16,117 bases of DNA from a virus (IMGVR_UViG_2740892235_000017:1-16117), one strand, 5' to 3'; shown: positions 1 through 14,696, numbered from the stretch's first letter. Notes: generated from the letters alone by a model not told the origin. Made by a program: numbers and translations.

Positions 1-198
1 TCAGGACTGAAGGCGTCTGTAACAACCGAACTGATAGTCTGCCAGACCCGCCATAACAAGCTGGGTCAGTATTAGCTGGCAGCGTTCGCGTGAAAGGTAC
101 GTATTCTGTGCAATCTCCCCGACTGTCGCCGGTTCGGTGGCACTTAATTCATTAAAAACTGCTCTGGCGGTTTCTGTCATATCCTGCTGTTTCAGCAT
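1..198 (-). CDS. Hypothetical small protein (about 65 aa)
   Basis: ORF 1..234 on minus strand ends with a stop at 1..3. Preferred start is the ATG of MLKQQDM (196..198), preceded by AGGGA about 8 nt upstream. No family recognised. Confidence 0.35.
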   Translation of the reverse strand: MLKQQDMTETARAVFNELSATEPATVGEIAQNTYLSRERCQLILTQLVMAGLADYQFGCYRRLQS

Positions 199-371
199 GT
201 CTTTTTCCCTTTTCCGGTTAACGTGACACACCAATAACTCTTGTCAAAAAAGCCAGCAAGCTGAAAGACCGGTATTAATAACCACCTGCACATTTTATGT
301 ACTGCACCATTTTTCTGGCATAAAAAAACCGCTCAATGCCGGGCAGTAAAATCTTTATTACTCAGGAAATT

Positions 372-1085
372 TTAACGTACTCTGACAGTATTAATTTCAA
401 AATCATTAATATTTCCGCTATTAAATATAACGAATTTCTTACCCCCACTCCTGTATGATTTCGATAACACCAGACGATCATCATAGCGCGCAATAATGTA
501 ATACCATACATTCTCATAGTGGACCGCCTGATATTCCCTCTTAAACTGTGGTTTGTACCAACCGGCAATAAGAGAGAATGCCCAGAAATAAATCATAAAC
601 CCAGCCATCATGAACTCAATTCGGTGATGGCGAATAACAGACATTTCCGAAAAACATTTGACTGAAACAAGTCTTCTTCCAGACCTGACAAAAAGCGTGA
701 TTGCAAAGGCAGCAAGAACGCAGAAAATCAGTACATCTGGCTCAACATGCTGATGAATTACAGAAAACTCCAGAACAGGTGGAATAAAAAGCAGCAATAT
801 CGCGAGAAAAAGCCGGATAAAACTCAAATTTTGTATATTGCGCTTTTGTTTTATGCCCAAAAAGAAAACAATACCAACTCCCCATCCAATAAGGAATATA
901 ACAATAACTGTCACAGCATAAAACAAACTTCGTGCTACATCATCGACACCAGCCCCGACAACCCACCATGGAAAGCCATAGTAAAATGAAGTACCCCATC
1001 CATAGAAATAAGCGCTCCCCCATCCGAGACAGCCCATATAAGCAACAAAAAGTGAAGAGTTTCTGAGCAGAGCACTGTCATCCAT
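372..1085 (-). CDS. Multi-pass membrane protein, aromatic-rich, in a visibly AT-rich block; function unknown (cargo/moron candidate)
   Basis: 237-aa ORF with several long hydrophobic segments (e.g. VTVIVIFLIGWGVGIVFFLGI, LFLAILLLFIPPVL, MMAGFMIYFWAFSLIAGW) and a C-terminal soluble tail. Region about 360..1100 is clearly more AT-rich than the rest of the window. Lies just downstream of the Q-like gene. Confidence 0.5.
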   Translation of the reverse strand: MDDSALLRNSSLFVAYMGCLGWGSAYFYGWGTSFYYGFPWWVVGAGVDDVARSLFYAVTVIVIFLIGWGVGIVFFLGIKQKRNIQNLSFIRLFLAILLLFIPPVLEFSVIHQHVEPDVLIFCVLAAFAITLFVRSGRRLVSVKCFSEMSVIRHHRIEFMMAGFMIYFWAFSLIAGWYKPQFKREYQAVHYENVWYYIIARYDDRLVLSKSYRSGGKKFVIFNSGNINDFEINTVRVR

Positions 1086-1226
1086 AGTAACACCATTAAC
1101 AACTCAAAAATATCAACACACATTACATAACAAATTGGATTCCATGCAGTCAAGGGGCGTCATTGATGGAGAAAGTATTGGCACAATCGTCATCACGTTT
1201 AATGTCTATGCCATTTTTTGGGGGGT

Positions 1227-1250
1227 AAAAAACCCGCTCGGTCACGGGTT
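1227..1250 (-). terminator. Rho-independent terminator on minus strand (candidate tR'-like late terminator)
   Basis: Minus-strand hairpin AACCCG-tgaccgag-CGGGTT followed by a T-run (plus strand 1227..1250, A-run 1227..1230 plus stem). Sits about 90 nt downstream of the Q-like stop. Confidence 0.45.
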
Positions 1251-1292
1251 TTAGTGGCTTTGCCATCACGTATAATAACGGCAAAATATCAG

Positions 1293-1322
1293 ATTTACAC
1301 GAAATATATGCCTTTTTATCTA
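1293..1322 (-). promoter_or_regulatory. Candidate sigma70 promoter on minus strand (pR'-like late promoter?)
   Basis: On minus strand: -35 TTGCAA (plus 1317..1322), 18-nt spacer, -10 TATATT (plus 1293..1298). Located between the Q-like stop (1339) and the terminator at 1227..1250. Confidence 0.3.
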
Positions 1323-1338
1323 CTTTTGCAATACTTTG

Positions 1339-2010
1339 CTATGAAAATGCCGCCTTTTGTTTTGAACGTGTTCCCTCCACCAACAATAAAGCTTCACTAT
1401 CCAGCCGATGAAAAATGTGTTTCATTGCAACCCAGTGACCAGTAAATGTCTTGGACCAGTTTTTGGTTGTTACTCCCACCAGTAACGCCAGTTCCTGGTA
1501 TTCGTAACCTTCCCCACCAAAAAGCTCAGCTTTTACCGCCTGCGCCGCCAACCAGATCAACGTCTTCAGGCGCACCAGAGTTTTTCCTGCAATTTTTCTG
1601 GTACCGGATTGAGCATTAAATTCAGTCCACGCCCACTGCGTTATCGCGATCTGATGCTCCCAGCAAATGCTACCGCTGTAACACCACAGCAGCCAGGCTT
1701 TATGATGTTCTTCAAGAGACAGAACGGCGCGTCGCCATGATGATGTCGAAAACTCAACCGGACTGACCAGGGCAATTGATGAGCCTTTCGCCAGTGATTG
1801 TTTACCCGGGATCGGGGGATTATCCCGCGTGATCATTTTTCCGGTTACCTCATCGCGGTAACGAATTTTTTTGCGTCTGTAACGCCCTGTATCGAACAGG
1901 GCATTTTCCTGCCAGACTTCCAGCTGGCCTTTTGTCGACCCACTAAGATCCGCAGTGGCAATCATGAGTTGCTCACGAACAAACTGTAAATACTGGTTAT
2001 TCATGCACAC
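1339..2010 (-). CDS. Probable late-gene antiterminator Q-like protein (assignment by position, not by recognised motif)
   Basis: 223-aa ORF immediately downstream of rusA-like and DUF968-like genes, the position Q occupies in lambdoid and Qin-type prophages. Followed by a promoter plus terminator pair. No direct similarity to lambda Q recalled. Confidence 0.4.
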   Translation of the reverse strand: MCMNNQYLQFVREQLMIATADLSGSTKGQLEVWQENALFDTGRYRRKKIRYRDEVTGKMITRDNPPIPGKQSLAKGSSIALVSPVEFSTSSWRRAVLSLEEHHKAWLLWCYSGSICWEHQIAITQWAWTEFNAQSGTRKIAGKTLVRLKTLIWLAAQAVKAELFGGEGYEYQELALLVGVTTKNWSKTFTGHWVAMKHIFHRLDSEALLLVEGTRSKQKAAFS

Positions 2011-2359
2011 CCACCTCTGTAATTCTTATCTCCAGCCGTCCACCAGATACTGGCTTGCCACGTACAATATTGATTTCATCAAACTGCTCATCGTCCATTA
2101 ACAACCCCGCGTGCGTCAGCGCATCCAGCGGTGCTTTCAGAATATTGTCCAGGTCACGGCGGCGCTTATCCGGTGGCTCTGCAATAATTTTTATTGCCAG
2201 CCGTCCGGACAGGCTTAATTTCAGTCGCTGCTGGCGAACAATAAGCACCACTGCCCGGCGATAACGCTCCCCGGCTTTTGATACAAAATATGTGCTGCCA
2301 CGGCGTCGCCAGTAAGTGTTCACCGTCGGCGGGTAAGGTAAAACCAAATCTATGAGCAT
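1997..2359 (-). CDS. rusA: RusA-type Holliday junction resolvase
   Basis: 120-aa ORF. Matches recalled RusA features: N-terminal LPYPPTVNTYWRR, central PDKRRRDLDNILKAPLDALTHAGLLMDDEQ (compare RusA PDRRRRDLDN...DALT...DD), C-terminal GGRLEIRITE. Confidence 0.8.
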   Translation of the reverse strand: MLIDLVLPYPPTVNTYWRRRGSTYFVSKAGERYRRAVVLIVRQQRLKLSLSGRLAIKIIAEPPDKRRRDLDNILKAPLDALTHAGLLMDDEQFDEINIVRGKPVSGGRLEIRITEVGVHE

Positions 2360-2371
2360 CAGTCACCTCTT

Positions 2372-3421
2372 TTACCCGAGCACGCCAGTCGCAAAGGCGT
2401 GATCAAGAAAACGAAAAATTAACTCAATCTGAGAGCCGTACTTTTTCTCAAACTTCAGCGGGTCTGCATGAAGTTCGTTGTGGTGCTCCCGGCACAACGG
2501 TAGCGTGAAAATATCGTGGGCCTTTGTTCCCACTCCCCCCTGACCATGACCAATCAGGTGATGCGGATCGTCAGCTGGCTTACCACAACACGCACACGGC
2601 TGTGTCTTTACCCAGCGCGTGTATTTCTCATTAACCCAACGGCGACGTTTAGGCCGCCTCATGAACGATTCAGGAGACTCCGGATCAACGGCGATACTGA
2701 CAACCGTTTTTTTCTGTGGTGGATTTTGTTGCTGGTGGACGTGAAGTGGCAGCGCAATATTTTTTGTGCGCTGCTTCAGTATGCTGATGGCTGTCTGTTC
2801 TCCCGGTACGATGTCACTCTCACGGTATACGGAGCGGATTTTTTCCACTGGTAATCCCAGCGAACGACGCGCTACTGCCTCAGGTAGTGCATCCACCACC
2901 TGATTGCAGGCCGCCCACCAGGATAATTCGGCCAGCGATAACTCCCTCTCCTGCGTACCGCTTATTGCGTGACGGATGACATCAATCATCCAGGCAACCA
3001 GATTCTGCTGAGCAAGTTGATCGAGTGATTCTGATGTCTGGTCGCGCAGCTGGTTGTCACAGTGCCAGCACAACACCATCGCGCCGGTACCATAACGGTG
3101 AATGGCTGTTTCGCTGTGATGATAATCGCCGTGTGGCCACTGGCAGGATTTCACGTGACGTAATAACCAGTCAGACAGTGCACCTGCACCACCTGCTGCA
3201 CGAATAACCTGCTCATCGCTGAAAAATGGCAGTAATGTTTTATCCTCTGCCAGCGGCTGGCGAACGGCAGGAACGACTCCGGACGGCAGACCGCGCATGT
3301 TTTTCGGTTCCGGCTCCATCAATATTCTGCCGTTATGGAATGCTGACATTGATTCACGGCCCGGCTTAAGGAGCACCATCCCGAGTTCCGGTACCAGAAC
3401 AGGTCGAAGTAATACCCGCAC
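2372..3421 (-). CDS. DUF968-family nin-region protein (YdfU-like, 349 aa)
   Basis: 349-aa ORF with a Cys/His-rich C-terminal block (CACCGKPADDPHHLIGHGQGG...CREHHNELH). Length and position (between rusA/Q and a hok locus) match Qin YdfU as recalled. Confidence 0.55.
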   Translation of the reverse strand: MRVLLRPVLVPELGMVLLKPGRESMSAFHNGRILMEPEPKNMRGLPSGVVPAVRQPLAEDKTLLPFFSDEQVIRAAGGAGALSDWLLRHVKSCQWPHGDYHHSETAIHRYGTGAMVLCWHCDNQLRDQTSESLDQLAQQNLVAWMIDVIRHAISGTQERELSLAELSWWAACNQVVDALPEAVARRSLGLPVEKIRSVYRESDIVPGEQTAISILKQRTKNIALPLHVHQQQNPPQKKTVVSIAVDPESPESFMRRPKRRRWVNEKYTRWVKTQPCACCGKPADDPHHLIGHGQGGVGTKAHDIFTLPLCREHHNELHADPLKFEKKYGSQIELIFRFLDHAFATGVLG

Positions 3422-3422
3422 G

Positions 3423-3710
3423 TTACCTCCAGATGCGCTGCTGGAATGTGCGGGACGGACGCGGTGGGCGTTCGGAATAAGGGAGCCTGACGGAGATTAT
3501 CCAGTGACGACGATCGAAGCTGAGGGCTTTCTCAAACTCATATCCGCGCCTGCGGTAACACTGGATCAGCCATTCGGCCTGTTCTTCAGTGCATGGGGGA
3601 TGCTGGAACCAGTCGGTTTTAAATACGTGCGAACACCGCCCTTGCCTACTGGCAAGGGCGGCAGAATTGTGCAATCTGCTATCGTGCGCCATCGGGATCT
3701 CCGGTGGCAC
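3423..3710 (-). CDS. Hypothetical nin-region protein (95 aa)
   Basis: ORF whose stop abuts the start of the DUF968 gene; coding-like composition. No family recognised. Confidence 0.35.
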   Translation of the reverse strand: MPPEIPMAHDSRLHNSAALASRQGRCSHVFKTDWFQHPPCTEEQAEWLIQCYRRRGYEFEKALSFDRRHWIISVRLPYSERPPRPSRTFQQRIWR

Positions 3711-4981: not shown

Positions 4982-5137
4982 TTACTCCTCAGGTTCGTAA
5001 GCTGTGAAGACAGCGACCTCCGTCTGGCCGGTTCGGATTCGTACCTCGCAGAGGTCTTTCCTCGTTACCAGTGCCGTCATTATGACGGTTAAACAGATGA
5101 CAATCAGGGCGATTAACATCGCCTTTTGCTGCTTCAT
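4982..5137 (-). CDS. hokD: Hok/Gef-family type I toxin (HokD/RelF-like, 51 aa)
   Basis: MKQQKAMLIALIVICLTVIMTALVTRKDLCEVRIRTGQTEVAVFTAYEPEE closely matches recalled E. coli HokD (RelF). SD GGAGAAG lies upstream of the ATG at 5135..5137. The ORF-track 70-aa form is an in-frame upstream extension. Confidence 0.85.
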   Translation of the reverse strand: MKQQKAMLIALIVICLTVIMTALVTRKDLCEVRIRTGQTEVAVFTAYEPEE

Positions 5138-5400
5138 AGCCTGCTTCTCCTTGCCTTTCGGCACGTAAGAGGCTAACCTACATGTGCAAAGCATGAAATT
5201 GGCCTCAGATTAATGTTAAGCGTCCTGCAAGACGCGTAATGTTAACTGGGGCTTTTCTCTGTCTGCCTTACGGCGGCATGCCCGAGGCAGACAGCCTCAA
5301 GCACCCGCAGCAATTCTACTTAACTCTTCTTTCCCCGCAAATCATTTTATCCCCGATGGTAATGTTCTCCCGATATGGGAATTCCCATATCAAGGTTAAC
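5138..5400 (-). promoter_or_regulatory. hok leader region (mok/sok-type regulation expected); candidate antisense Sok RNA on the plus strand
   Basis: About 260 nt of untranslated leader upstream of hok, containing an inverted repeat TCTGTCTGCC...GGCAGACAG (about 5257..5292). Hok loci are known to carry a structured leader and an antisense RNA; exact ends cannot be set here. Confidence 0.35.
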
Positions 5401-5408
5401 TCAATCGG

Positions 5409-5960
5409 TTAAAGCTCCATTAATTTTCCGGCCAGTTCATCTCGTGGCATTACCAGCCATCCGCGCGATTTAAGCAAAGCCAGGGCTTCTTCAACCGTCA
5501 CCAGCTGGCCTGGCGCATAACTTCGGATGAAGGCGGTTTTATCGTCACGGATCGCCAGGTGAAAATCGATATTCATTTTTCCCATAGCCCGCTCTTTCTC
5601 GTACTGGTTGAAGTAACTGTCTTCGAGTTTTTCGAATACTTCCCACGCCTGATCGGTTTCGAGCATTTTTGCATGACGGGCTGCTCCGCGTTCTGTCCAG
5701 AGGATGAGAGTGCGGGTTTTGGGAGAAATTTTCACCTCATTTTGCGACTCGTTTAAAACTAGTCGCAAATTTTTGAGCTCATCACCAACAGCTTTAAAGA
5801 AGTGTTTTCCCTCAATAAATCGAGATTTATTTTCATGGTGATTCTGCTGTATACGGATTGCTTCTGTTCCGTAAAGGCGGGCGAGTAACTCAGTTGTGAT
5901 TACAGGAATCTGGTTATAAGTGACAGGGGAAAGGTTTTTGACAGTAACTTGAGTCGTCAT
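5409..5960 (-). CDS. ORF6N-domain (antirepressor-like) phage protein
   Basis: 183-aa ORF; N-terminal region YNQIPVITTELLARLYGTEAIRIQQNHHENKSRFIEGKHFF matches the recalled ORF6N signature (...RFIEGKHYF). Confidence 0.55.
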   Translation of the reverse strand: MTTQVTVKNLSPVTYNQIPVITTELLARLYGTEAIRIQQNHHENKSRFIEGKHFFKAVGDELKNLRLVLNESQNEVKISPKTRTLILWTERGAARHAKMLETDQAWEVFEKLEDSYFNQYEKERAMGKMNIDFHLAIRDDKTAFIRSYAPGQLVTVEEALALLKSRGWLVMPRDELAGKLMEL

Positions 5961-6121
5961 GATAACGCCCTCTGGTTGATGAATTTAACTATCACCACCT
6001 TCAGGTCTCAATCATCAGGTGGCGAGACGTACAGGGTTGAGACTACCGGATCAACCAACCGGCCAGCCTTTCGGCTGCCCCATACGCCTCACCATAATTC
6101 AGATGTGCGTGCGCATACGAC

Positions 6122-6145
6122 AATAAAAAACACGCTCGCGGCGTG
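6122..6145 (-). terminator. Rho-independent terminator on minus strand
   Basis: Minus-strand hairpin CACGC-cgcga-GCGTG (plus 6131..6145) followed by TTTTTT (plus A-run 6125..6130). Confidence 0.45.
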
Positions 6146-6301
6146 TGTCTGTCGCGGTTGAATATCCGGGGTCTCAATCCCGACGGTCAACTCGACCGTG
6201 CGGTGAATATAGCCCCGGATTAGTAATTACGTCAACCCCAGCGGCAAATCGAATAAACCACCAGCGCTACCGCCATTGCAACTCCTGCCGTTACGAATGC
6301 C

Positions 6302-7305: not shown

Positions 7306-7968
7306 TCAAATAAAACCAGCTGCCTTCCGGCGTTCGTATTCCTGTTTCAGCCGTTCAATTGGCGTTGGGCCTTGAGGGTGTTTCGCCCCTTCCAGTTGTC
7401 GTCGCACTGGCGGAACACTCATCCCGTTACCAACATGCTTTGCCCATTTCGTCAGTTGCCGTTCCGCAAGTCGTTTTAACTCACCCTGCGTCATCTGGCG
7501 CTCAATCCCTCTGGTACGCATTTCGAGGCAGATGTGGTACAGCACAGGCTGTGGCCACGGGTATTTATCACTCCCGTCGTATCGCCAGGATTCATTGCGC
7601 CAGCGCCGGTACTCTTCCATCACGGCATCCACCGTAAGACCAAATGGATTTGCCCCACTCTCCGAAATCAGCGCAACAAACTCAGCCAGGTCCGGGGGCC
7701 ACGTTTCACCCGCCCGGCAGCGGTCCATGCACTGACGGCAGACCAGACGGATTTGCTGTTCAGTCATCGCACCAATCTGGGCAATCCAGAGCTTCGAAGG
7801 TGCGGCCCCGTTCTTCTGAGTCCAGCGGTTCGAATACACCTCCCCCATAAGCTCCCACAGCTTCCAGGCCGTTTCCGTTGCTGATAAATCCGTTGTCACG
7901 TTCCCACTGTTCGCGTGCTGCCCGGATTTCCTGAACTGCCCGTGATGCCGTGCCACCTGATGCTGCAT
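7306..7968 (-). CDS. Replication protein P-like (helicase loader); start uncertain
   Basis: C-terminal half (GLTVDAVMEEYRRWRNESWRYDGSDKYPWPQPVLYHICLEMRTRG...ELKRLAERQ) aligns with recalled lambda P (GLPNVSELVDMVYEYCRKRGLYPDAESYPWKSNAHYWLVTNLYQNMRA...ELRRKAADE). The ORF as drawn overlaps the O-like gene by 209 nt. Confidence 0.65.
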   Translation of the reverse strand: MQHQVARHHGQFRKSGQHANSGNVTTDLSATETAWKLWELMGEVYSNRWTQKNGAAPSKLWIAQIGAMTEQQIRLVCRQCMDRCRAGETWPPDLAEFVALISESGANPFGLTVDAVMEEYRRWRNESWRYDGSDKYPWPQPVLYHICLEMRTRGIERQMTQGELKRLAERQLTKWAKHVGNGMSVPPVRRQLEGAKHPQGPTPIERLKQEYERRKAAGFI

Positions 7969-8797
7969 GGCTTCCCCCCTTGCTGACTGGTTTTACCTGT
8001 GCCCTGACGTGCTGCACGTGGCGGGCAAATTTCTGCTCCCACTGAACCTGCGTGAAAACCTTCCCCTCCGCCATCCAGTAATCCCGGAATGCGGCAAGCT
8101 CTGCAGGTGTAAATTCCGGCTCAGGCAGAGCCATACCCCACACTGCTGCCCGTTGTCGAAAATCCGGCGACGGCTGCCAGACAGTAGTCATCGAAAATTT
8201 CCCGATCGGTTCGCTCAGGCCGTCCAGGTATTCAGGTTCGGCTGTCTGCAACGGCGCACCATTCGACTCACTGGTCGGAATACTCTCGCGCGCGTTATGT
8301 GTAGGGTTTAATTCTGTATCTGTATCTTTATCTGTCGTGACTTGTCGTGACAGATGCGTGACACGTCGTGACTCATCGTGACAATCAGCATTATGTTTCC
8401 GCAGCTTTTCCCGCTCCCGCTGCGCTCTCTTGCGCTCTGCCGGGGATTTTGCCGTTTGCGAAACGTTACCATTGTCCTCTTTCAGCACCTGACGTTTTTC
8501 CCATCCGGAAATAAGGTCACCATCCAGAACCCGCCCCTGCATTGCATGCAAAATTGAATCAATTACGTCTTCCGTCACATCAAGCGCACTTGCTAAATCT
8601 TCCGTCGTGACATCAATGTGACCACGTAGTGACACGCCGTGACATGTCGTGACATTTCGTGACGCGCTCACCAGAAGGTGTATATACACTGCCATCACTG
8701 TTGCGATTGGCTGTCCTGATACCCTGGCAATCGTTCGCCACTTGGGGTCATTTGGCATGTCATGCCACAATCTGAGCCAGGCATTAGCCATACTCAC
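7760..8797 (-). CDS. Replication initiator O-like protein (N-terminal wHTH, DnaT-like C-terminal region)
   Basis: 345-aa ORF upstream of the P-like gene. N-terminal WLRLWHDMPNDPKWRTIARVSGQ is typical of phage replisome-organizer N-domains as recalled. Contains two internal arrays of direct repeats (iterons). Confidence 0.65.
   Translation of the reverse strand: MSMANAWLRLWHDMPNDPKWRTIARVSGQPIATVMAVYIHLLVSASRNVTTCHGVSLRGHIDVTTEDLASALDVTEDVIDSILHAMQGRVLDGDLISGWEKRQVLKEDNGNVSQTAKSPAERKRAQREREKLRKHNADCHDESRRVTHLSRQVTTDKDTDTELNPTHNARESIPTSESNGAPLQTAEPEYLDGLSEPIGKFSMTTVWQPSPDFRQRAAVWGMALPEPEFTPAELAAFRDYWMAEGKVFTQVQWEQKFARHVQHVRAQVKPVSKGGSHAASGGTASRAVQEIRAAREQWERDNGFISNGNGLEAVGAYGGGVFEPLDSEERGRTFEALDCPDWCDD
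8335..8382. repeat. Iteron array 1: five TCGTGAC/GCGTGAC direct repeats at 10-11 bp spacing, inside the O-like gene
   Basis: Heptamers at 8335, 8345, 8356, 8366, 8376. An AT-rich stretch lies immediately 5' (about 8296..8334). Confidence 0.6.
8605..8663. repeat. Iteron array 2: six GTGAC-containing direct repeats at 10-11 bp spacing, inside the O-like gene
   Basis: Repeats at 8605, 8617, 8629, 8637, 8647, 8657 (TCGTGAC, TGTGAC, AGTGAC, CCGTGAC, TCGTGAC, TCGTGAC). Confidence 0.6.
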
Positions 8798-8859
8798 CTC
8801 TTCTGATACCGAACTTTACCCACGAACTTCCGGAAGAAATCCGGTATAAATATTGTTGG

Positions 8860-9285
8860 TCAATGCACAACAACAGCATTACCAGGCTGACCACCACTGT
8901 TAGTCAGGGTGCCCCAGGCGATCGCTACAGCGACAAAATCATCCACATCTTTCACCAGCCGATCCCGTCGTTCGACGATCTCCCGGTAATATTCAGAACT
9001 GTGACTGCGCATACGGGCCACCAGCAAAGGCGGCATCGCCTTTTCGATCGCCGGTAACAGCGCCTGAATTTTTTCAACAGCATCAGACGTGTCCTTCTCC
9101 ACCCAGCGGAAAATTTTCTGGGTATTACGGGCCAGGGCTTCCGGATGGCTGTCGTCATACAGTTCCGGGAACGTCATCCCCAGCTCGAAATAAGTCCGGG
9201 CTATTTCAGCTGCGGGAACTTTCTCACCATCAGGATATGCCCAGGCATTCATCGCCATACGGATGTGTTCATGCTTGATTTTCAT
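8860..9285 (-). CDS. YdaT-like protein (CII-position gene of Rac-type immunity regions)
   Basis: 141-aa ORF immediately downstream of the Cro-like gene, beginning MKIKHEHI, which matches my recollection of Rac YdaT. Assignment by position and partial recall. Confidence 0.45.
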   Translation of the reverse strand: MKIKHEHIRMAMNAWAYPDGEKVPAAEIARTYFELGMTFPELYDDSHPEALARNTQKIFRWVEKDTSDAVEKIQALLPAIEKAMPPLLVARMRSHSSEYYREIVERRDRLVKDVDDFVAVAIAWGTLTNSGGQPGNAVVVH

Positions 9286-9544
9286 GAATCACCCCCGTCT
9301 CTGGTTGTGTGTTAGCCTGACACTCGACAGGTAAGCCGTCGGTTGGGTTGGGATAAGAACTGCGATCAATCTCGTGCGGAGTTACTATCCAGCCAGTTGC
9401 TTCACACCAACGTAAAATTTTTTCCCCCGTAAGTTTCGCCCGCCCGGTAATGACATGGCTTACCATCCCCTGGGTTACCCCAACAATTTCAGCAAAATGT
9501 TTCTGAGTTATACCGGAATAACGCAAATATTCTCCAAGATTCAT
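9269..9544 (-). CDS. Cro-like / YdaS-like HTH regulator (91 aa)
   Basis: N-terminal HTH-like segment (ITQKHFAEIVGVTQGMVSHVITG). Divergent from the repressor gene. SD GAGGTG upstream of the ATG at 9542..9544. Confidence 0.6.
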   Translation of the reverse strand: MNLGEYLRYSGITQKHFAEIVGVTQGMVSHVITGRAKLTGEKILRWCEATGWIVTPHEIDRSSYPNPTDGLPVECQANTQPETGVIHENQA

Positions 9545-9651: not shown

Positions 9652-10152
9652 ATGAAAAGAAAATCCCTGTCAGAGATCGACCTGCAAGCCGCCCAGAGAC
9701 TAAAAGAAATCTGGACGGCGAAAAAAAATCAACTAGGGTTAACCCAAGAGCGTGCGGCAGAAATTCTGGGATTTTCGACACAGGGAGCTGTAAGCCATTA
9801 TCTAAATGGTCAGACACCTTTAAATCTTGAGGCTGTTATCAAGTTCGCAGGGTTACTGCAAGTTCCTCCCGAGTCAATCAGACCAGATATGGCCGAGTTG
9901 TTACAAATTGTAAGGATGTATCCCCAAGAATCTGGGGAGGACAATGTTGTCACTATATCTGCCGATATGGAACAATCGGAAAACGAACTTCCGTTTAATA
10001 TAGACCCCATGGAGCGGGATTTGCTCCAGACGTTCAGGGCTTTCCCCAAAGAAGATAAAGAGAAAATGCTTAAGGAAATGAAGGAGAAAAAAGAATCAAT
10101 TGAAGAAATCGTTGCGCGATGGCTAGCTGCGCAAAAAAGTCGTCGCGCCTAA
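9652..10152 (+). CDS. CI-like prophage repressor (XRE-family HTH, no S24 peptidase domain); PaaR-like first gene of a three-gene repressor-antitoxin-toxin operon
   Basis: 166-aa ORF with N-terminal HTH (LGLTQERAAEILGFSTQGAVSHYLNG) and a charged helical C-terminus. Divergent from the cro-like gene. Followed 17 nt later by the antitoxin gene. Confidence 0.65.
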   Translation: MKRKSLSEIDLQAAQRLKEIWTAKKNQLGLTQERAAEILGFSTQGAVSHYLNGQTPLNLEAVIKFAGLLQVPPESIRPDMAELLQIVRMYPQESGEDNVVTISADMEQSENELPFNIDPMERDLLQTFRAFPKEDKEKMLKEMKEKKESIEEIVARWLAAQKSRRA

Positions 10153-10169: not shown

Positions 10170-10361
10170 ATGAGTACAGCCCTTTCCCCGATAATTTCTG
10201 AATTTGAAACGGTCGAACAAGAAAACAGCTATAACGAATGGTTGCGAGCCAAAGTGGCAGCAAGCCTCGCAGATCCCCGTTCTGGAATTCCGCATGATGA
10301 AGTAATGGCTGAAATGGAAAACCTTATTGCTCAATTAGCTACAACGAACAGGAGTGAGTAA
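10170..10361 (+). CDS. Small antitoxin of a ParE-family toxin (PaaA-like, 63 aa)
   Basis: Strong SD GAGGAGG before the ATG at 10170. Its stop overlaps the toxin ATG by 1 nt. Size and context match the PaaA2 antitoxin of paaR-paaA-parE modules as recalled. Confidence 0.55.
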   Translation: MSTALSPIISEFETVEQENSYNEWLRAKVAASLADPRSGIPHDEVMAEMENLIAQLATTNRSE

Positions 10362-10651
10362 TGCTGCCCATTTTATGGCTACCTTCTGCACGTGATGATT
10401 TACGTCAGATAGTAGCCTATATTGCTAAAGAAAACCCTCCCGCTGCACGTAGACTAAAAATACGCATTGAAACATCAGTTTTGTCACTTACTGAACACCC
10501 TTATCTGTACCCACCGAGCGAAAGAGTTCCAAGTCTTCGAGAGATAGTGACTCATCCTAACTACATAATACTTTACCGAGTAACAACATCTAACATCGAG
10601 ATCGTAAATGTAGTTCACTCACGAAGGCAGTATCCAAACAAAAGCTGTTAA
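10361..10651 (+). CDS. parE: ParE/RelE-superfamily toxin (96 aa)
   Basis: ParE-like features: N-terminal LPSARDDLRQIVAYIAKENPPAARRL and C-terminal IEIVNVVHSRRQYP. Translationally coupled to the upstream antitoxin. Confidence 0.6.
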   Translation: MLPILWLPSARDDLRQIVAYIAKENPPAARRLKIRIETSVLSLTEHPYLYPPSERVPSLREIVTHPNYIILYRVTTSNIEIVNVVHSRRQYPNKSC

Positions 10652-11072: not shown

Positions 11073-11324
11073 TTAGTACCAGTAAAAACAGGTTGCCACT
11101 GGTTAATTTACCCTGAAAAGTCAGGGCATAACACGAAAGCGCACGGCGAAGTTCGTATATCTGTACGGCGTCGTTAAATTTTCTTCGACCGTGCACTTCC
11201 GGTTGTGGCAATCCGCGAAATGGCGCGGCGGTAAGTATGGCTGGGGTTTCCTCCATTGCTCCAGAAAATGCACCGGGTTGTCAGGTTGACCATACGCTTA
11301 AGTGACAGCCCCGCCACAATACCC

Positions 11325-11380
11325 ATGTGTAGTCTTTGGTGGCATCAGTTCTACTCCGTGACTGCTCTGCCACCCTTTTT
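11325..11380 (+). ncRNA. dicF: DicF-like small RNA with intrinsic terminator
   Basis: Segment ...GGTGGCATCAGTTCTACTCCGTGACTGCTCTGCCACCCTTTTT closely resembles recalled E. coli DicF. Terminator stem GGTGGCA/TGCCACC (11338..11344 and 11368..11374) plus T-run 11376..11380. Lies immediately upstream of dicB as in Qin. The 5' end is approximate. Confidence 0.5.
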
Positions 11381-11547: not shown

Positions 11548-11736
11548 ATGGAAACGTCACTACCAAACGTTAATACGTCTGAAGGGTGTTTTAATATTGG
11601 TATTCTGCTCAGTAACCGGGAGTTTACTGAGGACGCCATCAGGATGAGAAAATATGAGCCTTATCTTCTCAATGATAATTCCATACTCTCCAGAATTGCC
11701 CTTCTTGAACTTGGCATTTTCGGAGGGCAGCAGTGA
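11548..11736 (+). CDS. dicB: Cell-division inhibitor DicB (62 aa)
   Basis: METSLPNVNTSEGCFNIGILLSNREFTEDAI... matches recalled DicB (M.TLLPNVNTSEGCFEIG...FTEDAI), same length. SD GAGGA upstream. Confidence 0.75.
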   Translation: METSLPNVNTSEGCFNIGILLSNREFTEDAIRMRKYEPYLLNDNSILSRIALLELGIFGGQQ

Positions 11737-11872
11737 GTTCAGCGTTTACACTGATGATGACGGTTTTTCTGATAACAGGTGAGCCACAGAAAGTGATTAC
11801 CGGAATTTATGCCAGTAAAGAATCCTGCCATCAGGCAAGAGACGAGCAAAAAATTTCCGGTGAATGTCTCCC
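11733..11872 (+). other. ydfD-like ORF copy truncated by the assembly gap (probable artefact copy)
   Basis: GTG start overlapping the dicB TGA (GTGA). Encodes MSSAFTLMMTVFLITGEPQKVITGIYASKESCHQARDEQKISGECL and then runs into the N-run at 11873. Confidence 0.4.
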
Positions 11873-11882
11873 NNNNNNNNNN
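11873..11882. other. Assembly gap (10 N)
   Basis: Run of 10 n characters. Confidence 1.
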
Positions 11883-11940
11883 ATCATTCCATACTCTCCA
11901 GAATTGCCCTTCTTGAACTTGGCATTTTCGGAGGGCAGCA

Positions 11941-12129
11941 GTGAGTTCAGCGTTTGCACTGATGATGACGGTTTTTCTTATAACAGGTGAGCCACAGAAT
12001 GTGATTACCGGAATTTATGCCAGTAAAGAATCCTGCCATCAGGCAAGAGACGAGCAAAAAATTTCCGGTGAATGTCTCCCGTTAAACAAAGTATCGCTGT
12101 ACCTGAATAACGAAATACCGGCTGGATAA
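11941..12129 (+). CDS. ydfD: YdfD-like small membrane protein (62 aa; Qin lysis protein homologue)
   Basis: MSSAFALMMTVFLITGEPQNVITGIYASKESCHQARDEQKISGECLPLNKVSLYLNNEIPAG has an N-terminal hydrophobic helix. Position directly after dicB and size match Qin YdfD as recalled. Confidence 0.55.
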   Translation: MSSAFALMMTVFLITGEPQNVITGIYASKESCHQARDEQKISGECLPLNKVSLYLNNEIPAG

Positions 12130-12224: not shown

Positions 12225-14696
12225 ATGAGTAAAATATTTATTTGCGCCGCCATTCCTGACGAACAGGCAATAAAAAACGAGGGCGCTGTTGCTGTGGCCA
12301 CAGCCATTGAAGCCGGTGATGAACGTCGCGCCCGCGCAAAATTTCACTGGCAATTCCTTGAACATTATCCGGCTGCTCAGGACTGCGCTTATAAATTTCT
12401 TGTCTGTGAGGATAAACCCGGTACACCCCGCCCAGCCCTCGACTCCTGGGATGCTGAATATATGCTGGAAAACCGCTGGGATGAGGCGTCTGCTTCCTTT
12501 GTCCCGGTCGAACCTGAATCAGATCCGATGAACGTCACTTTTGACAAGCTGGCCCCTGAAGTACAGAACGCTGTCATGGTTAAGTTCGATACATGTGAAA
12601 ACATCACCGTTGATATGGTGATTAGCGCACAGGAATTGTTGCAGGAAGACATGGCAACCTTCGACGGACATATCGTGGAAGCTTTGATGAAAATGCCAGA
12701 AGTTAACGCCATGTATCCGGAGCTTAAGCTGTATGCCATCGGGTGGGTTAAGCATAAATGTAAGCCTGGTGCCAAATGGCCAGAAATTCAGGCAGAGATG
12801 CGCACCTGGAAAAAACGTCGCGAAGCAGAACGAAAAGAAACCGGGAAACATACTTCTGTTGTTGAGCTGGCCCGCGCCAGAGTCAACCAACAGCACACTG
12901 AAAACTCAGCAGCAAAAATCAACCCTGTCACTACTGCCATTCGTCGCGAATACAAGCAGACATGGAAAACCCTGGATGAAGAGCTGGCTTACGCTCTCTG
13001 GCCTGGTGATATTGATGCCGGAAACATTGACGGTACCATCCATCGCTGGGCTAAAAATGAGGTTATCGACAAGGATCGCGAAGACTGGAAGCGTATCTCT
13101 GCATCAATGCGCAAACAGCCTGATGCGCTTCGCTATGACCGTCAGACTATTTTTGGCCTTGTTCGTGAGCGCCCGATCGACATTCACAAAGATCCCGTTG
13201 CACTGAACAAATACATCAGCGAATACCTGACGACAAAGGGCGTGTTTGAACATGAAGAAACAGACCAGAGCTCTGCTGATGCTATCCTGTCGTCAGCAGC
13301 ACAAACTGATCCAGTGGAGACGGCGGAATCCAATTCTCAAAAAAATGAAATCCTGGTGGAAGCTGAACCATCTGTAGAGCGTGAAGGACCGTTTTATTTC
13401 GTCTTTACCGATAAGGACGGGGAAAAATACGGCAGGGCAAACAAACTTTCTGGCCTGGACAAGGCGCTGGCTGCCGGTGGTACCGAAATCTCAAAAGAAG
13501 AATATTTTGCCCGAAAAAATGGCACATATACGGGCTTACAGCAAAATACAGATACCGCAGAAGATTCAGAACAACCAGAGCCGGTAAAAGTTACCGCTGA
13601 CGAAGTAAACAAAATTATGCAGGCAGCCAATATCAGCCAGCCTGACACCGATAAATTGCTTGCTGCATCACGTGGTGAATTTGTTGAAGGGATTAGCGAC
13701 CCGAATGATCCGAAATGGGTTAAGGGGATTGAAACCCGCGATTCTGTGAACCAGAACCAGCCCGAATCGGAACAAAACGACCAGAAAGCGGAACAAAACA
13801 GTCCAAATGCGTTACAAAACGAGCCAGAAACGAAACTGCCTGAACCAGAAGTGCAACAAGAACCGGAAAAAGTTTGCACCGCATGCGGTCAGACCGGTGG
13901 CGGCAACTGTCCTGACTGTGGTGCGGTGATGGGGAACGCAACCTACCAGGAAACATTCGATGAAGAGAATCAGGCTGAAGCTCAGGAAAATGATCCGGAG
14001 GAAATGGAAGGCACTGAACATCTGCACAAGGAGAACACTATCAGCGATCAGTATCACGCCAGCGATAATAAAACTGGCGAGACAGCAAATCCCTTAATTA
14101 AAGTGAACGGTCATCATGAAATCACATCCACCAGCAGGTTGTGGCACCATCTGATGATTGACCTTGAAACAATGGGAAAAAATCCTGATGCGCCAATAAA
14201 CGCTATAGCCGGTAAGTTTTTTGATCCGGCAACCGGAGAGATGGGGCCAGAATTCAGCAAAACTATCGATCTGGAAACCGCAGGCGGGGTCATCGATCGG
14301 GGCACCATTAAGTGGTGGCTGAAACAGTCACGCGAAGCACAATCCGCCATTCTGACCGATGAAATCCCGTTGGATGATGCACTGCTGCAATTCCGGGAAT
14401 TTATCGACGAAAACTCCGGTGAATTTTTTGTTCAGGTCTGGGGTAACAGTGCAACTTTCGACAACGTGATTTTACGCCGTTCATATGAACGGCAGGGGAT
14501 CCCCTGCCCGTGGCGTTACACCAATGATCGCGATGTAAGAACGATGGTTGCTCTGGGACTGGTGATGGATTTCGACGCAAGAACGACTATTCCATTCGAA
14601 GGTGAACGCCATAACGCGCTGCACGATGCGCGTTACCAGGCAAAATACGTTTCAGCCATCTGGCAAAAACTGATCCCGAGTCAGGCTGATTTTTAA
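12225..14696 (+). CDS. Large prophage protein (823 aa) with C-terminal DnaQ-like (DEDDh) 3'-5' exonuclease domain
   Basis: SD TGAGG upstream of ATG 12225. C-terminal region has Exo I-like MIDLETMG and Exo III-like HNALHDARYQAKY. An acidic low-complexity linker (about 13740..13860) and a CxxC-x7-CxxC motif (CTACGQTGGGNCPDCG, about 13876..13923) precede it. Confidence 0.65.
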   Translation: MSKIFICAAIPDEQAIKNEGAVAVATAIEAGDERRARAKFHWQFLEHYPAAQDCAYKFLVCEDKPGTPRPALDSWDAEYMLENRWDEASASFVPVEPESDPMNVTFDKLAPEVQNAVMVKFDTCENITVDMVISAQELLQEDMATFDGHIVEALMKMPEVNAMYPELKLYAIGWVKHKCKPGAKWPEIQAEMRTWKKRREAERKETGKHTSVVELARARVNQQHTENSAAKINPVTTAIRREYKQTWKTLDEELAYALWPGDIDAGNIDGTIHRWAKNEVIDKDREDWKRISASMRKQPDALRYDRQTIFGLVRERPIDIHKDPVALNKYISEYLTTKGVFEHEETDQSSADAILSSAAQTDPVETAESNSQKNEILVEAEPSVEREGPFYFVFTDKDGEKYGRANKLSGLDKALAAGGTEISKEEYFARKNGTYTGLQQNTDTAEDSEQPEPVKVTADEVNKIMQAANISQPDTDKLLAASRGEFVEGISDPNDPKWVKGIETRDSVNQNQPESEQNDQKAEQNSPNALQNEPETKLPEPEVQQEPEKVCTACGQTGGGNCPDCGAVMGNATYQETFDEENQAEAQENDPEEMEGTEHLHKENTISDQYHASDNKTGETANPLIKVNGHHEITSTSRLWHHLMIDLETMGKNPDAPINAIAGKFFDPATGEMGPEFSKTIDLETAGGVIDRGTIKWWLKQSREAQSAILTDEIPLDDALLQFREFIDENSGEFFVQVWGNSATFDNVILRRSYERQGIPCPWRYTNDRDVRTMVALGLVMDFDARTTIPFEGERHNALHDARYQAKYVSAIWQKLIPSQADF

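Follow-up and report, generated by a model that had tools for sequence, protein, structure and literature searches.

Why would the gene of a phage replication initiator carry the same pentamer eleven times, always in the same orientation and at intervals of only 10 to 11 bp? This question is raised by IMGVR_UViG_2740892235_000017:1-16117, a viral DNA of 16,117 nucleotides (hereafter the window) that comes from the early region of an E. coli prophage of the lambdoid type and has its best match in strain 05-3629, at 99.6% identity. The gene in question (7760..8797, minus strand) is an open reading frame (ORF) of 345 aa from a GTG, and the repeats form two arrays that both lie within it, as the first-pass annotation of this DNA had placed them. 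Judging from the sequence, we consider it quite probable that these arrays are the replication origin of the prophage, located inside the gene of its own initiator.

On the plus strand, the GTGAC cores are found at 8337, 8347, 8358, 8368 and 8378, and at 8607, 8618, 8629, 8639, 8649 and 8659, which bears out the earlier count of eleven same-orientation repeats in two clusters at 10-11 bp intervals. The distal array (8334..8383, minus strand; cores 8337-8382) covers codons 139-154 and directly abuts an AT-rich stretch; on the coding strand it consists of five (T)GTCACGA(C) copies spaced by 10, 10, 11 and 10 bp, or 10, 11, 10 and 10 bp when followed along the plus strand. The proximal array (8604..8664, minus strand; cores 8607-8663) covers codons 45-64 in the 5' part of the gene and holds six (T)GTCAC(GAC) copies at 10, 10, 10, 11 and 11 bp (11, 11, 10, 10 and 10 bp along the plus strand). 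With a mean core spacing of 10.3 bp, the sites of one array are therefore on the same face of the helix. The gap between the arrays amounts to 229 bp, or about 21.8 helical turns, and we do not rely on any phasing between them since this distance is set by the length of a protein domain. The fuller repeat site on the coding strand is TGTCACGAC, and matches to this 9-mer with at most one mismatch are confined to the two arrays within the 16-kb window, except for a single match at 12926. GTGAC itself occurs 45 times in the whole window, compared to 27 ± 5 in shuffled sequences, and no 5-mer of the window reaches more than six same-strand copies within 60 bp, where 200 shuffles gave four at most.

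Here we show that these repeats are selected at the level of DNA and not as a peptide. The eleven copies are distributed over frames 0, 1 and 2 as four, three and four copies, and are read as V-T four times, as C/G-H three times, and as x-S-R or V-S-L four times; therefore this is not a peptide repeat. The first-pass annotation had assigned all repeats to VT/VTT codons, which turned out to apply to only four of the eleven. When synonymous codons were shuffled 2000 times with protein and codon usage fixed, 3.3 ± 1.5 copies of GTCAC were expected in the initiator gene and never more than 8 appeared, compared to the 11 observed. Of the 19 positions at which the protein permits GTCAC, the 11 inside the arrays all carry it and the 8 outside never do. 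On the strength of the reading frames and of the synonymous shuffles, we thus rejected a repetitive peptide as the source of the arrays.

The same selection is apparent within the species. In an alignment of nine E. coli variants (84-100% identity), variable columns make up 2 of 66 in the CGTGAC cores (3%), 14 of 43 in the array spacers (33%), and 82 of 348 in the remaining coding sequence of the N-terminal domain, so that the cores are less variable than either of the latter classes (Fisher p 3e-5 for each). The cores of the distal array are invariant in this alignment, as are those of the proximal array among the E. coli variants. That the DNA sites constrain the protein, as had been proposed, is backed by the synonymous shuffles and by the way the local peptide tracks the core class between lineages (see below).

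How, then, does a coding sequence accommodate these sites? The proximal array codes for a loop modelled with low confidence (residues 48-54), which separates helix 3 from the winged helix in the N-terminal domain, and the distal array encodes a disordered inter-domain linker, with a predicted local distance difference test score (pLDDT) below 50 at residues 137-158. As such, the DNA sites occupy structurally tolerant coding positions. Within E. coli, copy-number variants of the arrays differ in length by exactly 21 bp, and those of the adjacent hexamer stretch by 12 bp; in ETEC1738 and SCU105, the proximal array is shorter by exactly 21 bp, or two copies. Compared to most of the family, the protein encoded in the window is longer by an insertion of 7 residues in each array. 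A step of 21 bp corresponds to two sites and two turns of the helix, or seven codons, and is the smallest change in site number that preserves the reading frame. The locus thereby offers a natural example of dual coding, in which a presumed protein-binding array, translated in three frames, determines the local peptide, is tolerated in a loop and a linker, and can expand only in frame-preserving pairs.

The AT-rich stretch next to the distal array (8294..8333, without an assigned strand) is strand-asymmetric and a candidate DNA unwinding element. The GC content drops to 35% at 8300-8339, as opposed to 50-65% in the surroundings, and no other 40-bp segment of the initiator gene is as unstable as 8294-8333, at -44.6 kcal/mol versus a mean of -57.4 (standard deviation 3.3); by both measures, the AT-rich stretch that had been noted alongside the repeats is real. 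Part of it is a period-6 repeat at 8313-8335, detected by TRF, which reads (GATACA/GATAAA)n on the coding strand and encodes a D-K/D-T linker. Its length varies, with 12 or 24 extra bp in O157 variants. Furthermore, in 63 of 64 relatives the 40 bp following the distal array are more AT-rich than the gene, with a mean AT fraction of 0.66 versus 0.44 and 76% purine on the coding strand, and here too the stretch usually consists of (GATAAA)n or (GATACA)n encoding the D-K/D-T linker.

This stretch also marks a boundary between modules. By megablast, the gene splits into a part resembling Rac-type ydaU (7703-8333) and a part resembling 'protein O' of other E. coli phages (8313-8900). These homology blocks overlap exactly at the hexamer repeat, 8313-8333, which places a crossover joint for module exchange there. 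The ydaU gene of Rac-SA53 has the DnaT-like half and the AT-rich joint in common with the gene in the window, with a different N-terminal domain and no GTCAC array, and SCU105 keeps the N-terminal domain and the arrays and has an unrelated C-terminal half. The arrays thus follow the N-terminal domain and not the C-terminal half, and therefore belong to the former, as would be expected if this domain binds them. As a separate observation, the Rac-SA53 ydaU gene (locus L097, of the DUF1376 type) contains an inverted repeat, GGTGTTCAAAC...GTTTGAACA, at gene positions of about 424-458, just upstream of its AT-rich joint, and we regard this repeat as a candidate for the initiator sites of that DUF1376-type module.

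To what extent is this layout shared? Of 5426 complete E. coli genomes, 708 contain a close copy of the module, with several per O157:H7 genome and roughly 1270 E. coli copies in all, and the N-terminal domain family comprises about 1300 representative clusters at 50% identity. Searching with tblastn, we found relatives of the N-terminal domain in phages of Pseudomonas (60% identity), Aeromonas (67%), Ralstonia (38%) and cyanobacteria (30-37%), among others. Pseudomonas phita81A carries GTCAC at gene positions 129-160 and 388-418, and GTCACG arrays are found at like positions in Aeromonas pAEv1818 (4 + 3 copies) and E. coli phage Tritos (4 + 5 copies). In Ralstonia phage Hennie, the arrays at 130-182 and 401-431 are built of GCAACG in place of GTCACG. 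A scan of contigs representing one genome per species returned 80 loci with 34-92% identity, which belong to Gamma-, Beta- and Alphaproteobacteria and in some cases to Acidobacteria. For 77 loci, arrays were scored by the 5-mer that forms the longest chain of copies at intervals of 9-12 or 20-22 bp within the first 620 bp of the gene. At least five periodic copies were present in 63 of these 77 initiator 5' regions, compared to only 1 of 148 flanking control regions of 620 bp. The first-pass annotation had held that an origin would be contradicted by the repeats being missing from homologous initiator genes, and this proved not to be the case. A comparison of repeat number across relatives, as it had also proposed, shows that most carry four proximal copies. 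Two arrays are found in 56 of the 64 array-bearing loci, and nearly every relative has the distal array, also when it has only one.

The core of the repeat is not the same throughout the family. The classes GTCACG, GTAACGC, CGAACGC, TGCAACGC and GTGACGC have ACG in common. The protein columns that track this class best are residues 45-62, encoded by the proximal array itself; where the GTCACG class has V-T, for instance, the AACG classes have A-N or A-T. This means that the DNA site dictates the local peptide. We also considered whether residues of the recognition helix co-vary with the core, and rejected this as protein-DNA co-evolution, since the top columns are merely those encoded by the proximal array. 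In three distant Xanthomonadales relatives (L090 of Stenotrophomonas, L091 of Lysobacter and L093 of Noviluteimonas) the proximal array lies in another loop, at residues of about 20-35, as GTCAC/TCACG at gene positions 57-105 within an insertion between helices 2 and 3 that reads ...VTSVTSVTNVT..., whereas in other relatives it is located in the loop after helix 3. This suggests that an array can arise in, or be shifted to, another loop.

Which part of the protein would recognize these sites? The likely true start of the initiator is the ATG at 8791 (343 aa), as annotated in homologues. Publicly, the protein goes by the names 'phage replisome organizer' and 'DnaT-like ssDNA-binding domain-containing protein', and it matches PHROG 1408 and 3729, 'replication initiation protein'. 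Its N-terminal domain, presumed to be the one that binds the iterons, is encoded by 8492..8791 on the minus strand (approximately residues 1-100) and is predicted to adopt a winged helix resembling the N-terminal domain of DnaD. An AlphaFold2 model of residues 1-158, based on 44 sequences, has a mean pLDDT of 68.7 with confident core blocks at 85-92, and contains three helices, a loop, and then a helix-turn-helix with a beta wing. The winged helix is predicted to come closest to the DnaD N-terminal domain and to a plasmid iteron-binding initiator; fold matches in BFVD are weak, and several of them are phage replisome organizers. The domain has no Pfam match at E values up to 10, with PF09681 likewise not reported at that threshold. 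It aligns with TIGR01714 (phage_rep_org_N) at an E value of 0.004 and 17.3 bits, far below the cutoff of 49.8, over model positions 1-118 of 119, and a remote relationship to the phage replisome organizer family is plausible. In the same part of the gene, we noticed a near-perfect palindrome, TGGCATGTCATGCCA, at 8753-8767, close to the 5' end and spanning the codons for WHDMP. It is unchanged among the nine E. coli variants, which may merely reflect a highly conserved peptide.

The C-terminal domain is DnaT-like and is encoded by 7997..8197 on the minus strand, with PF17948 (DnaT DNA-binding domain) matching residues 201-267 at an E value of 2.9e-17 (62.6 bits versus a cutoff of 25), and the DnaT chains 6aep, 2ru8 and 9zbt of the PDB matching at about 1e-5. 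The protein as a whole is not an orthologue of DnaT, as the NF002770 match, with 94.5 bits, falls short of the cutoff of 201 and covers model positions 82-156 only. Presumably, this domain makes contact with the loader-helicase complex, with single-stranded DNA, or with both. The next gene (7306..7767, minus strand), whose start overlaps the initiator stop by 8 bp, encodes a lambda-P-like helicase loader (PF06992 at an E value of 1.3e-15; PHROG 109, 'P-like helicase loader'). A mechanically called ORF for this loader, 7306-7968 on the minus strand, runs 201 bp into the initiator gene; an annotated homologue and the ATG at 7767 point to a P-like loader of 153 aa. PHROG 15931, for its part, appears to model a fused O+P product. 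Read from the right, the minus strand carries genes for a Cro-like helix-turn-helix protein (9269-9544), a CII/YdaT-like protein (8860-9285), the initiator, the P-like loader and a DUF1627 protein, followed by an antirepressor, DUF968, RusA and Q, and the plus strand carries genes for a CI-like repressor (9652-10152) and an integrase.

Taken as an origin, how might this element work? We infer binding by the N-terminal domain, unwinding, loader recruitment and origin activity from the anatomy of the locus and from characterised analogues. After induction, rightward early transcription, which is leftward in the window, would express the Cro-like, CII/YdaT-like, initiator and P-like proteins, and would itself pass through the origin. 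The predicted DnaD-like winged helix may then bind the TGTCACGAC sites, one per turn and all on one face of the DNA, with five sites abutting the AT-rich stretch and six more 229 bp upstream. The oligomeric initiator complex would bend or stress the DNA and melt the (GATAMA)n stretch at 8294-8333. Finally, the DnaT-like domain could recruit the P-like loader together with host DnaB, and perhaps hold the single strand, allowing the replisome to assemble.

An origin within an initiator gene has well-known precedents, and the first-pass annotation had drawn the parallel to oriλ. As an analogy it is sound, given the repeats inside the gene, the AT-rich stretch and the P-type loader; as homology it is not. 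An alignment by hhalign of the N-terminal domain profile of 44 sequences with lambda O yields a probability of 0.1%, and for this reason, together with the lack of a Phage_rep_O match, we rejected homology to lambda O. Lambda, P22 and phage L have origins inside their initiator genes, each with different iterons (PMC8022706). As in oriλ within gene O, and in gene 18 of both P22 and phage L, the origin proposed here lies in the part of the gene that encodes an inter-domain linker. There are further likenesses to lambda: its sequence, too, has an AT-rich, purine-skewed stretch behind the binding repeats when read along the gene, the next gene encodes a P-type helicase loader, and the N-terminal specificity half and the C-terminal half behave as exchangeable modules. 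There are differences as well. Lambda has four 18-bp sites some 20-24 bp apart, whereas here 5 + 6 direct sites of about 9 bp occur one per turn. The sites of lambda O have internal dyad symmetry, and the sites described here are not 18-bp palindromes; moreover, they come as two arrays 229 bp apart, and the C-terminal domain of their initiator is DnaT-like.

In SPP1, gp38 binds direct repeats of oriL inside gene 38, together with an AT-rich unwinding element (PMC6316719). At the sequence level, the locus in the window resembles SPP1 oriL and the replisome organizers of Gram-positive phages in having repeats and an AT-rich element inside the organizer's own gene. Unlike these, it has proteobacterial hosts, and P-like loader or other helicase genes take the place of gp39/gp40. 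SPP1 has a second origin, oriR, elsewhere, whereas this window holds no second array elsewhere. The Rep protein of pSK41 has a DnaD-like N-terminal domain that binds boxes in the middle of its gene, and the peptide encoded by that origin is a dispensable linker (PMC5703833). The in-gene repeats are shared with pSK41 Rep, and a DnaD-like N-terminal domain is predicted here as well; no RepA_N Pfam domain was found in the initiator, which in contrast to Rep is a phage protein with a DnaT-like rather than a primase-interacting C-terminus, and with two arrays instead of one set of four boxes. DopC, an O-like protein with a DnaT-type C-terminus, is encoded upstream of a lambda-P-like gene, and its authors found no iteron-like sequences in dopC (PMC5509034). 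The domesticated DopC/DopE proteins thus resemble the initiator in domain and gene order, and differ in that the arrays, the main feature here, have no reported counterpart in dopC. The Eru replication types of Stx phages, which we also considered, are different modules.

Several points weigh against an origin. In the simple k-mer test, 14 of the 77 relatives have fewer than five periodic copies, and Microcystis phage Mwe-JY25 shows no array. Eight of 64 relatives have only one array, which bears on the role of the proximal one. The window contains no DnaA box and no consensus site for IHF, the phage records examined carry no rep_origin annotation here, and a published experiment on this or a related element was not found in the literature searched. 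Nor did literature on the repeat, on ydaU/oriJ, on the replication types of Stx phages and on replisome organizers yield a description of this origin, although a query with the repeat sequence was swamped by primer sequences. Rfam reports no known RNA element between 7700 and 9700, shuffled sequences fold as well in single-stranded form as 8290-8400 does (z = 0.27), and a promoter/terminator scan gave nothing above chance, the sole promoter-like match in the arrays (9/12) being made of the repeats themselves.

Could the arrays serve control instead? The proximal array could be the second half of the origin or a control element, and it may be that it acts as a built-in control element by looping or handcuffing. 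Going further, all the repeats, or at least those of the proximal array at 8604-8664, would be control sites for self-titration, for handcuffing, or for blocking the gene's own transcription or translation so as to limit initiation, rather than the start site, which we consider unlikely. Control iterons do exist in P1, F and R6K. In keeping with such sites, the two arrays have the same orientation and lie 229 bp apart, only the distal one touches the AT-rich stretch, a minority of relatives manage with a single array, and the shift of the proximal array to a different loop in Xanthomonadales indicates that its presence matters more than its exact position. On the other hand, both arrays are alike in core and spacing and co-vary throughout the family, which fits one protein acting on both, though this co-variation does not separate origin from control function; moreover, neither array lies in a promoter region, and the 16-kb window contains no other copies. 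Control by these sites is best seen as a refinement of the origin model rather than as a true alternative to it.

It is very unlikely that the repeats are sites for another protein, be it the CII/YdaT-like or Cro-like protein or a host factor, that acts in transcription control, packaging or recombination. Some regulators also use direct repeats in helical phase, and modules have demonstrably recombined at the AT-rich hexamer stretch. However, the arrays segregate with the N-terminal domain of the initiator from Enterobacterales to Burkholderiales, Xanthomonadales and Acidobacteria, while the neighbouring genes differ among the eight annotated phage loci that were compared. Furthermore, the core changes along with the initiator lineage, and Rac-SA53 has the YdaT-like neighbour and the C-terminal half without having the arrays. 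Lastly, that the repeats are a functionless by-product of a repetitive peptide or of low-complexity slippage is effectively refuted, for although the adjacent hexamer stretch is slippage-prone and its D-K/D-T linker always stays in one frame, the period of 10-11 bp is not a multiple of three and uses all three frames, the copy count exceeds that of every synonymous shuffle, and cores far more conserved than their spacers are followed by the peptide from lineage to lineage.

Returning to the arrays as a replication origin, a wider interpretation can be entertained tentatively, namely that this is one member of a large initiator family, in Proteobacteria and beyond, whose members have their binding sites embedded in their own gene, within two segments that tolerate them, a loop and a linker. 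Within such a family, a site specificity that diverged repeatedly on NNNACG(C) and a copy number quantised in 21-bp steps are visible. Moreover, (GATAMA)n may be both a sequence-specific unwinding or loading cassette and a domain-swap joint, common to the DUF1376-type ydaU of Rac.

An origin inside an O-like gene is a textbook principle, a specialist would expect such repeats, and the current understanding of phage replication is not overturned by them. Some interest is added by the dual coding in three frames, the copy-number steps of 21 bp, the shifting core and the conserved hexamer joint, and by how widespread the module is. The replication module is common in E. coli, and we found no mapped or annotated origin for this N-terminal domain family. 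Knowing origin and specificity sites would provide a way of typing prophage replication modules and of predicting cross-activation or interference among co-resident prophages, as well as candidates for replication-based exclusion or for plasmid vectors.

The window holds several other features. A full-length sok antitoxin RNA at 5132-5306 on the minus strand (117 bits in Rfam versus a gathering score of 59) implies a hok/sok-type toxin-antitoxin locus within the prophage. Matches to the C4 antisense RNA (6015-6099, minus strand, 69 bits) and to isrK RNA (6125-6199, minus strand, 51 bits) lie directly upstream of an antirepressor gene of the ORF6N/Ant type (5409-5960, minus strand), an arrangement that we take to resemble the C4-ant secondary immunity of P1/P7. 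In the early-left region, 11324-11375 on the plus strand matches the DicF small RNA (61 bits versus a gathering score of 48). Next to the CI-like repressor gene, the ORF at 10361-10651 on the plus strand encodes a toxin of the ParE family (PF05016, E value 4.6e-18), and the small ORF upstream of it, 10170-10361, could be its antitoxin. A tandem duplication of 208 bp at 11678-12080 (2.0 copies, 98% identical) has a run of 10 N between the copies, at 11873-11882, and may be an artefact of assembly or scaffolding. Finally, a 21-bp tandem repeat at 13768-13830 (3 copies, 75% match) lies inside the ORF at 12225-14696 on the plus strand, whose product of 823 aa carries a C-terminal Rv2179c-like 3'-5' exonuclease domain.

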